From Candidatus Odinarchaeia archaeon (GTDB lineage Archaea; Asgardarchaeota; Odinarchaeia; Odinarchaeales; Odinarchaeaceae): DNA of 5,654 bases. The first letter of the stretch is position 1; each line of letters opens with the position of its first letter. Shown here in pieces: positions 2,631 to 4,829 of the stretch. The stretch is taken from positions 1-5,654 of the forward strand of contig JAHQXC010000077.1 in assembly GCA_029856525.1 (NCBI GenBank). Direction: 5' to 3'. The notes under the pieces are model-generated. The model was not told where the DNA came from, did not search any database, and saw nothing but the letters and a program-made list of their open reading frames with translations. A program made the position numbers and the translations under genes.

Positions 2631-3422
2631 ATGAATTTAGGGCTTAAAGGTAAAACAGCGATCGTAGCAGCGTCAAGCAAAGGCTTAGGATTCGAAATAG
2701 CTAAAGCCTTAGCTGAAGAAGGCGTTAAAGTTTCAATATGCGCTAGAAACGAGAGCGAACTATTGAAAGCCCGTGAAACCATAGTGAAAGAAACAGGCAG
2801 CGAAGTTCTAGCAGTTAAATGCGATCTAACAATCCAAGAAGATATTAAAAACCTCGTCGAGAAAACAGTTGAAACCTTCGGCGATGTAAACATTCTAGTT
2901 AACAATTCAGGAGGACCCCCAACCGGAATATTCACAGAACTACCATTAGAAGAATGGTTGAAAGCAGTCAAACTAAACTTGATAAGCGCGATCACACTCT
3001 CCAAACACGTCTTACCATATATGATTAAAAACCGCTGGGGGAGAATAATAAACTCCACATCATTCTCCGTTAAACAACCGATAGAAGGATTAATCCTATC
3101 AAACAGTATAAGACTAGCAGTAATAGGGTTCGCTAAAACCCTTGCAAACGAAGTTGGAAAATACAACATCACCGTAAACAACGTATGCCCAGGATACTTC
3201 AAAACAGACAGAGTTATACAACTAGCTAAAACCAAAGCTGAAAAACAGAATACAACAATCGAAAACATATTCAAAGAATGGGAGAGCCAAATACCCCTAG
3301 GCAGACTAGGAAACCCCAGAGAATACGCAGAACTCATACTATTCCTAGCATCAGAGAGAGCAAGCTATATCACAGGAGCCACCATCCAAATCGACGGCGG
3401 AATAATAAAAAGCCCACTATAA
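2631..3422 (+). CDS. Atypical short-chain dehydrogenase/reductase (BKR-like SDR subgroup lacking YxxxK)
   Basis: Rossmann motif AIVAASSKGLG, VNNSGGP, GRIINSTS, ITVNNVCPG, IPLGRLGNPREYA and YITGATIQIDGG. The catalytic segment reads LSNSIR instead of YxxxK. SD AGGTGG at 2620-2625; 14 nt after the folP stop, so probably co-transcribed. Confidence 0.9.
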   Translation: MNLGLKGKTAIVAASSKGLGFEIAKALAEEGVKVSICARNESELLKARETIVKETGSEVLAVKCDLTIQEDIKNLVEKTVETFGDVNILVNNSGGPPTGIFTELPLEEWLKAVKLNLISAITLSKHVLPYMIKNRWGRIINSTSFSVKQPIEGLILSNSIRLAVIGFAKTLANEVGKYNITVNNVCPGYFKTDRVIQLAKTKAEKQNTTIENIFKEWESQIPLGRLGNPREYAELILFLASERASYITGATIQIDGGIIKSPL

Positions 3423-3463: not shown

Positions 3464-3569
3464 GCGGGGGTTCCCGAGCCAGGTCTAAGGGGTAGGACTC
3501 AGACTCCTATGCTGCAGAGTCAAATCAACGCAGACAGCTTCATGGGTTCAAATCCCATCCCCCGCACCA
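3464..3569 (+). tRNA. tRNA-Leu(CAG), archaeal type, CCA encoded, with a putative 18-nt intron in the variable arm
   Basis: Acceptor stem GCGGGGG/CCCCCGC with A73 and CCA. D arm CCCGAGCCAGGTCTAAGGG. Anticodon stem TAGGA/TCCTA with loop CT-CAG-AC. T arm ATGGG-TTCAAAT-CCCAT. The variable region (3510-3541) is 32 nt. Removing 3518-3535 gives T-GCT-GCAG-AGC-TTC (14 nt) and an 88-nt tRNA, the usual archaeal tRNA-Leu geometry. Confidence 0.93.
3518..3535 (+). other. Putative non-canonical tRNA intron (AGTCAAATCAACGCAGAC) in the variable arm
   Basis: Central 4-bp helix CTGC(3512-15)/GCAG(3530-33), 3-nt bulge AG^A(3516-18), inner helix GT/AC closing a 7-nt loop, and second bulge AC^A(3534-36). Cutting after the second nucleotide of each bulge restores a canonical Leu variable arm. 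The outer helix is imperfect (relaxed HBh'/BHL form). Confidence 0.75.
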
Positions 3570-3836
3570 CTTTTATTCAATATTATAAGAGTGATTTAAA
3601 CGGGATGAAGAGTTAAACACTTTCTGGTATTCTATAATAGTATTGCGAGTTTATTCACAAGTATTTATAAATGACTTGCGACTATATTTTATTCAAGAAT
3701 TATAACAGAACCAACGTGAATATGGTGTAATATCCAGGCTAGAAAAATCATCGAAAGGATCTTGACGTTTAGTTTAATTAATGCCGAATGAGTTTGAGTT
3801 TAAATATTCCCATGAAGGATTAGTCGGTGATTATAG

Positions 3837-4829
3837 ATGCCAATACTTGTTATTGACGATTTCAAGTATAAGCTTTGGAAACCTGAAGACGAGGAGAAAG
3901 AGTTTCACCCTATAATAAAAGAGCATTACAAACACATATTTGGTGAAGATTCTATATACTTTGACATGAAGCATAAGCTTAAATCAAAACCCGGAAGTGC
4001 CGCGATCCCTGATGCCTTTGTCATCACTTTATCTAAGCCGTATACTTGGTATATTGTTGAAAATGAATTGGCAGACCACCCGCCTTACGAGCATATAGTT
4101 CCACAGCTCACGAAATTTATAAATAACATTGAGAAATTAGAAATAAAGAACAAGATTAGAGATATTTTATACAACGAGCTGAGTAATTATAATAATAAGG
4201 AGTTAATTAAAAGAAAAACTGGCCAGGATTCATTCCAATTTTTGGACAACCTTGTTTCAGATCCTCCTAAGATTTGTATTATAATTAATGAAATAAAACC
4301 AGGATTGGAAGACGCAGTTAAAACTTTGAAGGCACCTTCTGGTATAGAAATAATTGAGTTTAAAACTTTTGAGAGTAGTAATGCTCCAAACGTTCGAGCA
4401 TATTTAATTACCGAGCCACTTTATAAGCTTGAAGAGCACGAGAATAAGAACTGGGAAAGTTCGCTTGCTCGTGCTAATAATAACTTAAAAGAATTAGTTG
4501 ATATTTTAAGCAAGCAAATAGAAGAATTAGGGGATGTGAAGAAGGAAGTTAGTGGAAAATACTTATGTTTTTACAAAATACAACAAGGTGTAAGGTCAAT
4601 ATTTACGGCATTTATATTGACCACAGGCGCGCTTAAAGTCAGAATTAGAACAAACCCGAACACGTTCAGTGACCCACAGAAATTGACGGGAGATAAAATT
4701 TACAAAGGCTGGTTCTTTAAGAAAATAGGACAAGAAAGAGAGTTTAAGATAACAAGTAAAGAATCCATACCATACGCAATGGAATTGATAAGACACTCCT
4801 ATGAATTTAGCGGTAAGCAAGAGCTATGA
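3837..4829 (+). CDS. Putative PD-(D/E)XK-superfamily (NucS/restriction endonuclease-like) nuclease with a DUF5655-like C-terminal domain
   Basis: SD GGTGA at 3826-3830 and TATA-like TTTAAATA at 3799-3806. The N-terminal EEKEFHPIIKEHYKHIFG helix is followed by PDAFVI...WYIVENEL (PD...E-x-E variant). The C-terminal ~120 aa (LKELVDILSKQIEELGDV...LKVRIR...FSDPQKL...EFKITSKESIPYAMELIRHSYE) resembles DUF5655. Domain calls come from motif recognition, not a search. Confidence 0.6.
   Translation: MPILVIDDFKYKLWKPEDEEKEFHPIIKEHYKHIFGEDSIYFDMKHKLKSKPGSAAIPDAFVITLSKPYTWYIVENELADHPPYEHIVPQLTKFINNIEKLEIKNKIRDILYNELSNYNNKELIKRKTGQDSFQFLDNLVSDPPKICIIINEIKPGLEDAVKTLKAPSGIEIIEFKTFESSNAPNVRAYLITEPLYKLEEHENKNWESSLARANNNLKELVDILSKQIEELGDVKKEVSGKYLCFYKIQQGVRSIFTAFILTTGALKVRIRTNPNTFSDPQKLTGDKIYKGWFFKKIGQEREFKITSKESIPYAMELIRHSYEFSGKQEL

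Follow-up and report, generated by a model that had tools for sequence, protein, structure and literature searches.

A predicted protein-spliced intron at position 47d/47e in the variable arm of an Odinarchaeum tRNA-Leu(CAG)

The tRNA-Leu(CAG) gene and its variable-region insert

The window, by which we mean the whole stretch of DNA analyzed, is an entire 5.65-kb contig from an Odinarchaeum assembly of 1.32 Mb (38.5% G+C, 93% complete). Among the proteins encoded in this assembly is a tubulin of 424 aa, which gives a full-length match of 893 bits to PDB 7EVB ("Tubulin-like protein"), the OdinTubulin of Candidatus Odinarchaeum LCB_4. The protein genes that it carries upstream are ordinary, encoding GcvT (537–1697, −), a pterin-binding enzyme (1768–2616, +), and a short-chain dehydrogenase (2631–3422, +). 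The Rfam tRNA model RF00005 scores positions 3464–3566 (+) at 49.2 bits, compared with a gathering score of 29, and places a 30-nt insertion in the variable region. Downstream of this tRNA gene lies a 330-aa ORF (3837–4829, +) without a Pfam family. The tRNA gene is made up of the following elements.

3464..3569, + strand: tRNA-Leu(CAG) gene, 106 nt including the encoded CCA (3567–3569), with discriminator A3566 and anticodon CAG at 3500–3502
3464..3517, + strand: 5' exon, containing the acceptor, D arm, anticodon arm, variable-stem 5' strand GCU (3511–3513), and variable loop GCAG (3514–3517)
3518..3535, + strand: predicted 18-nt intron at 47d/47e, whose excision restores the arm shape of uninterrupted Asgard tRNA-Leu; same-site introns are found in 27 distinct genes
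3536..3566, + strand: 3' exon, containing the variable-stem 3' strand AGC (3536–3538), UUC, the T arm, the acceptor 3' strand, and the discriminator A
3571..3574, + strand: T-run directly 3' of the gene, read as a likely archaeal transcription stop

The acceptor strand reads as GCGGGGG, the D arm as that of a class II tRNA, and the anticodon loop as C-U-CAG-A-C. The variable region (3510–3541) is 32 nt long. Excision of 3518–3535 leaves the arm U-GCU-GCAG-AGC-UUC, and ARAGORN calls this spliced form an 88-base tRNA-Leu(CAG). The spliced form has what is expected of a class II tRNA-Leu, namely the loop G-C-A-G with A3516 and G3517 as 47c and 47d, A3566 as A73, and the Leu anticodon CAG. In its unspliced form, the gene escapes ARAGORN, which calls no tRNA in the window either by default or with -i. 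No second Leu(CAG) gene was found in the assembly, where the window gene is the sole copy. A "Leu(cag)" call made by ARAGORN on contig C26 in circular mode is gone in linear mode and was dismissed as a wrap-around artefact.

Within the precursor, the variable region can be folded into a BHB-like motif, in which a caret marks each predicted cut.

3512..3515, + strand: 5' strand CUGC of the central helix H, consisting of two stem bases and the first two loop bases; its partner is 3530–3533
3530..3533, + strand: 3' strand GCAG of the central helix H, intron sequence
3516..3518, + strand: 5' bulge AG^A, predicted cut 3517/3518; its first two bases are A47c and G47d
3534..3536, + strand: 3' bulge AC^A, predicted cut 3535/3536
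3519..3529, + strand: intron hairpin h', GU (3519–3520) paired with AC (3528–3529) around a 7-nt loop

The CUGC/GCAG helix is present in the minimum-free-energy fold of the whole gene. In archaeal introns, each bulge is cleaved after its second base and before its third (PMC4307357), and this rule applied to AG^A and AC^A predicts cuts at 3517/3518 and 3535/3536 and thus an intron of 18 nt. As in other BHB introns, the motif has a 4-bp H and two 3-nt bulges on opposite strands, and its intron-side helix h' is just 2 bp, the least that a BHB intron is expected to have. The strict hBHBh' form additionally calls for an exon-side outer helix h, which measures 0 bp here and 0–1 bp among the 27 same-site genes. 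This helix is absent because G3537, the base after the 3' bulge, cannot pair with G3511. The motif is therefore a relaxed one and not a full BHB, and the 3' splice site lies outside a closed 3-nt bulge.

The original prediction, made from the sequence of the window, had described a 32-nt variable region with this CTGC/GCAG fold and these two bulges, had deduced from them an 18-nt intron at 3518–3535 and an 88-nt tRNA, and had warned that scanners may miss the gene. The elements all lie where it had placed them, ARAGORN agrees on both the spliced product and the missed precursor, and the comparison with related genes described below backs the same intron.

Energy estimates for the isolated 32-nt region favor the BHB conformer at 37 °C (−2.1 kcal/mol versus +8.9 kcal/mol for the mature stem closed around the intron). 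At 75 °C, however, the isolated BHB motif is at +3.2 kcal/mol and neither conformer is predicted to be stable alone, so that support from the enzyme or from the body of the tRNA would be needed. The motif is also easy to find. A loose BHB scan of the 106-nt gene returns 16 matches, and ARAGORN tolerates any shortening of the variable arm, alternative excisions included; neither motif nor scanner therefore decides the junction by itself. Taken alone, the BHB-like motif is no more than chance would provide, whereas the comparative evidence goes well beyond chance.

Conservation and covariation at the 47d/47e site

The insert is kept within full-length genes in three genomes of the same genus (95–96% identity) and in three genomes of the sister family, where both the CAG and the UAG isoacceptors carry it. 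The variable regions of the two groups read as follows; the AG shared by the loop and the 5' bulge is written twice.

This genus: U GCU G[C/U]AG AG^A GU-loop-AC GCAG AC^A GC UUC
Sister family: U GCC GUAG AG^A GG-loop-CC GCGG A[C/A/G]^G GC UUC

Where the genus has the exon stem GCU/AGC and the intron strand GCAG, the sister family has GCC/GGC and, in step, GCGG. The intron hairpin h' is GU/AC in the genus and GG/CC in the sister family, both of its pairs changing on both sides, and the hairpin loop differs freely. Within the genus, variation is found in 5 of the 18 intron columns, all of them in 3521–3527, and in 2 of the 88 exon columns. One exon difference is at 3504 (position 38, in the anticodon loop), which reads C here and in one relative and A in the remaining two species of the genus. 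The other is at 3515 (47b, in the variable loop), where this genome alone has C and so reads GCAG while the others read GUAG. This C3515 turns a U-G wobble of the precursor central helix into a C-G pair and leaves A47c and G47d intact.

Other Asgard families provide tRNA-Leu genes with uninterrupted arms, such as U-GGC-GUAG-GCC-UGC and U-CUC-GUAG-GAG-UUC, which share the shape U-NNN-GUAG-NNN-UKC. Across all relatives, the junction 3517/3518...3535/3536 alone yields this shape. The comparison of orthologues suggested in the original prediction showed an insert retained in the genus and its sister family, and the uninterrupted tRNA-Leu arms of other families match the spliced form.

Twenty genes were aligned for an analysis of covariation. 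In these, 95.8% of the cells of the BHB structure are paired; H alone is paired in 100%, with pair types CG/GC/GU and CG/UA and changes on both sides, and the intron hairpin h' is paired in 87.5%. The BHB covariation score is 0.703, compared with a shuffled mean of 0.225; none of 500 shuffles reaches 0.703, and the best slid control gives 0.158. The mature 3-bp stem is also paired in 100% of cases with both sides changing, a count that is biased because the 20 genes were chosen by a complementary mature stem, which does not affect the BHB count. Its covariation score is 0.772 (shuffled mean, 0.251; 0/500 shuffles reach the observed value; best slid control, 0.054). The same two exon bases thus co-vary with a partner in the intron and also with a 3'-exon partner, and this dual pairing is a prediction of splice-dependent refolding. 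The fully paired H bears out the earlier proposal that the arm is held in the precursor through the intron's own GCAG.

The distribution of the site was gauged by searching 400 genomes of the phylum with a pattern that demands at least 9 extra bases between GUAG-A and UKC plus the T arm; a reversed-pattern control gave no matches. Same-site tRNA-Leu inserts were found in six Asgard families, f1 (3/3, plus this genome), f2 (3/3), f7 (5/5), f3 (2/2), f10 (1/1), and f26 (1/2), counts that are lower bounds given the strictness of the pattern. Matches in family f9 proved to be tRNA-Ser (D-arm GTAGAGCGC) and not tRNA-Leu, and those in G026, G300, G312, and G370 belong to other tRNAs; a further match was seen in G205. 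A scan of genomes of all species, in which bacterial chance matches are abundant, recovered at least two Bathyarchaeia loci with an insert at exactly 47d/47e. A Woesearchaeota match of the same scan was set aside, as it did not parse as a same-site intron.

L131:1551-1584 and L134:298-339, both − strand: Bathyarchaeia (a different phylum) tRNA-Leu on MAG contigs, with a 47d/47e intron, an AG^A 5' bulge, and a GCGU/GCG[C/U] helix

The 47d/47e site is either very old or has been gained repeatedly.

Together, the six Asgard families and the two Bathyarchaeia loci supply the set of 27 distinct tRNA-Leu genes with this intron site. All four H pairs form in 25 of the 27; of 324 control 4-mers drawn from other offsets in these introns, 2 are fully paired with the exon strand. 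AG^A is the 5' bulge throughout (27/27). At the 3' side the last two intron bases vary (AC, AA, AG, AT, TT), and the bulge's third base is in each case also the start of the 3' stem strand. The introns are 16 to 31 nt long with a middle that is free to vary, and the spliced loop is GUAG in 26/27 genes, the window gene being the only one with GCAG. The two genes that do not form all four H pairs make up a single orthologue group of the sister family.

L037:55-99 and L038:42-86, both − strand: third tRNA-Leu gene of the sister-family genomes G006 and G005, with a 31-nt insert at the same site and no 4-bp helix in the usual register

The arm of these two genes, U-GAC-GUAG^A...GACGAG^G-UC-UUC, may use a different geometry or a different junction. 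An origin of the intron by local duplication of GCGUAG was considered and rejected, since genes with GCU, GCC, or GGU stems have no copy in the intron strand; the likeness to GCGUAG in genes with a GGC stem arises because complementarity to the self-complementary GCGU demands it.

Four tRNA-Leu genes were found in the genome, each with at least one variable-arm intron.

tRNA-Leu(CAG), in the window: one intron, at 47d/47e
tRNA-Leu(UAA): one anticodon-stem intron and one at 47d/47e (GCGU/GCGC, AG^A, AG^G)
tRNA-Leu(GAG): a full canonical 37/38 intron plus another within the variable-stem 5' strand (46/47)
tRNA-Leu(UAG): a clean intron at 46/47, plus one of less regular form at about 47d/47e
Locations of the three tRNA-Leu genes outside the window (genome G000): C97:4168-4303, − strand; C97:7928-8065, + strand; C124:14736-14924, − strand

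These three genes parse into BHB introns by the same bulge rule. The 47d/47e site is thus occupied in three of the four genes (CAG, UAA, and UAG), and the CAG gene is the only one of the four in which the variable-arm intron is the sole intron. A tRNA-Leu(CAA) gene was not found in the genome. The four tRNA-Ser genes seen (on contigs C26, C61, C62, and C91) have intact variable arms with no intron. Interrupted tRNA genes are otherwise abundant in the genome, and many of them are class I tRNA genes with the insert in the variable region. Genome-wide, ARAGORN at default settings finds 16 tRNA genes and the Rfam tRNA model 26 in an assembly that is 93% complete; multiple or non-canonical introns conceal much of the tRNA set.

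Predicted splicing of the precursor and its charging by LeuRS

Two EndA genes, of 188 and 187 aa, are present in the genome, and both products have N-terminal and catalytic-domain folds. The first can be aligned over its full length with the catalytic subunit of the Aeropyrum pernix enzyme (A. pernix; 3P1Z chain B), keeps the Tyr/His/Lys triad, and has K-P-K in place of K44-P-R46 of A. pernix, in the Crenarchaea-specific loop. Lys44 of this loop gives EndA its broad substrate specificity, relaxed motifs included (PMC3241643). The second copy aligns with M. jannaschii EndA and has Ala at the position of the catalytic His. The host EndA therefore looks like the two-subunit (alpha-beta)2 type with broad specificity, and broad specificity is what the original prediction had called for; its assembly and activity are predicted from sequence. 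A gene for the RtcB ligase is present as well.

C95:1-1311 (= L200; genome G000), − strand: RtcB gene, with a LAGLIDADG-domain intein after about ORF residue 102; it runs off the contig end

By sequence, then, the host has both an endonuclease suited to relaxed motifs and a ligase.

We consider it probable, at roughly 0.87, that positions 3464–3569 are Odinarchaeum's only tRNA-Leu(CAG) gene and that it carries an 18-nt protein-spliced intron, 3518–3535, at 47d/47e. The observed sequence, fold, covariation, and enzyme genes lead us to infer expression of the gene, followed by cleavage and ligation along the following lines; among the sequencing runs listed as containing this stretch, none is recorded as RNA. 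Before splicing, the arm's 5' strand and the first two loop bases (CUGC) would pair with GCAG of the intron to give the 4-bp central helix. The 2-bp intron hairpin would close one side of this relaxed BHB, leaving the other side without an exon helix. At each 3-nt bulge, AG^A and AC^A, the splicing endonuclease would cleave the strand 3' of the second base, leaving two exons for RtcB to ligate. The freed 5' strand could then pair with AGC to form the normal arm, U-GCU-GCAG-AGC-UUC.

A spliced intron could in principle be bounded by other cuts, either a one-base shift or an excision of 16 nt between the two GCAGA copies that would leave U-GCUG-CAGA-CAGC-UUC. To ARAGORN, the products of the 16-nt excision and of several shifted 18-nt excisions all pass as tRNA-Leu(CAG), and the 4-bp stem of the 16-nt product would co-vary too, being GCUG/CAGC in one family and GCCG/CGGC in the other. 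As we read the sequence, however, no register of the 16-nt excision gives a 4-bp helix with 3-nt bulges. Moreover, the loop that it retains would differ among paralogues (AC, AA, AG, AT, TT), whereas the 5' copy is always G-Y-A-G and contains the conserved A47c and G47d in 27/27 genes. Uninterrupted Asgard tRNA-Leu, with a 3-bp stem and a 4-nt loop, is also unlike the 16-nt product, and we regard cuts at other positions as very unlikely. Retention of all 32 nt, giving a mature tRNA with an extra-long irregular variable arm, is less probable again. It would agree with a motif that has no exon-side helix and with an unspliced gene that still scores above the Rfam threshold, but not with an insert whose middle varies in sequence and length (16–31 nt) and whose two ends retain BHB geometry, covarying with the exon. 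Retention would also leave A47c and G47d buried in an internal bulge, whereas the host LeuRS has kept the residues for reading them at a hairpin tip; in addition, the genome is full of BHB introns and has the genes for splicing enzymes.

The least probable of these alternatives is that the window holds a decaying or unexpressed copy and that CUG codons are read by tRNA-Leu(UAG). Such a copy would hardly be expected to keep exons that are nearly invariant over four species of the genus (2/88 columns vary) together with A73, the encoded CCA, and the T-run. An assembly that is 93% complete leaves room for a second gene that went unassembled, yet no other Leu(CAG) gene was found in it, and in a one-contig 1.418-Mb genome of the same genus BLAST gives matches at just four tRNA-Leu loci, of which one is the CAG orthologue, with the intron.

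The position of the proposed intron bears on aminoacylation. A47c and G47d are determinants for LeuRS, and the C-terminal domain of the P. horikoshii enzyme reads them with residues that include Pro962, Ile964, Ile966, and Glu967 (PMC4005665). The host LeuRS, 958 aa in length, aligns to its last residue with P. horikoshii LeuRS (1WZ2) and ends in P-G-I-L-I-E; this P-x-I-x-I-E ending means that all four residues that read A47c and G47d are conserved. With the loop numbered 47a–47d, the intron lies between 47d and 47e, which fits the earlier placement directly after the LeuRS bases. All same-site genes have A47c and G47d as the leading two bases of the 5' bulge. The precursor would present these bases in a bulge and not at a short hairpin's tip, which probably makes it a poor substrate for LeuRS, in line with the proposal in the original prediction that splicing would gate aminoacylation.

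Most likely, the 47d/47e intron is a neutral passenger that is kept where splicing happens to be allowed, rather than a selected device. LeuRS ignores the anticodon. This blindness, the double use of A47c and G47d as 5' bulge bases, and the capture of the arm's 5' strand by the intron could together suggest a selected checkpoint, by which no tRNA-Leu precursor would be charged by LeuRS before splicing of its variable arm. We think such a checkpoint unlikely. If it were real, it would account for the presence of variable-arm introns in all Odinarchaeum tRNA-Leu versus none in the four tRNA-Ser, and for the recurrence of the site in six Asgard families and Bathyarchaeia.

Relation to known archaeal introns

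For annotation, the gene indicates that tools without models for class II variable-arm introns will under-count tRNA-Leu or report over-long arms. Because its variable-arm intron is its only intron, tRNA-Leu(CAG) is the cleanest natural test case for whether a two-subunit Asgard EndA can cut a motif that has no exon-side helix, and it could equally serve to ask whether an intron placed on the LeuRS determinants stops charging of the precursor. At this recurrent site, conserved exon sequence already gives half of the motif (the stem plus GU, followed by the AG bulge). Its repeated use agrees with a view put forward in print, in which introns are maintained wherever a splice motif can be formed in the tRNA (10.64898/2026.10.13.758758).

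Crenarchaeota and Ca. Caldiarchaeum subterraneum are described as having introns of the "V-arm" in passages of PMC3082918 and PMC3293823 that cite Sugahara 2008/2009, and for the variable-region introns of A. pernix tRNA-Lys splicing has been confirmed experimentally (PMC4307357). The intron described here resembles these crenarchaeal and aigarchaeal non-canonical introns in being short, in lying outside 37/38, in its BHB or relaxed motif, in following the same cut rule, and in having a host with a two-subunit EndA. Unlike them, it is found in an Asgard host and within a class II tRNA's long arm, at the boundary between the loop and the 3' strand, right after the LeuRS determinants. In the literature we found no description of this exact 47d/47e class II site or of its overlap with LeuRS determinants; Marck & Grosjean 2003 or Sugahara 2008 may hold one.

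Heavily interrupted tRNA genes in Asgard archaea were described by Valentin-Alvarado et al. 2024 (PMC11291895), and a preprint (10.64898/2026.10.13.758758) reports variable-region insertions, although insertions in class II variable arms are omitted from its drawing. As in those studies, most tRNA genes have non-canonical introns and are in part missed by annotators. Both studies, however, center on Freyarchaeia, Atabeyarchaeia, and Jordiarchaeia, with "Odin" absent from the preprint, and neither takes up the 47d/47e site, its recurrence, or the way it overlaps the LeuRS determinants.

A closer comparison is available within the same genome, where tRNA-Leu(GAG) has a canonical 18-nt hBHBh' intron at 37/38. 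The two introns are alike in length class, in their 4-bp H, in their 3-nt bulges, and in the cut rule. In the 37/38 intron, however, h' is 4 bp and h is 6 bp, compared with 2 bp and 0 bp in the variable-arm intron, which would therefore need an enzyme that tolerates relaxed motifs. Also unlike the 37/38 intron, the variable-arm intron can form its H only by unzipping the mature variable stem. Overall, this is an intron of a known kind at a site that is recurrent and not rare, and both variable-arm introns and interrupted Asgard tRNA genes have already been published.
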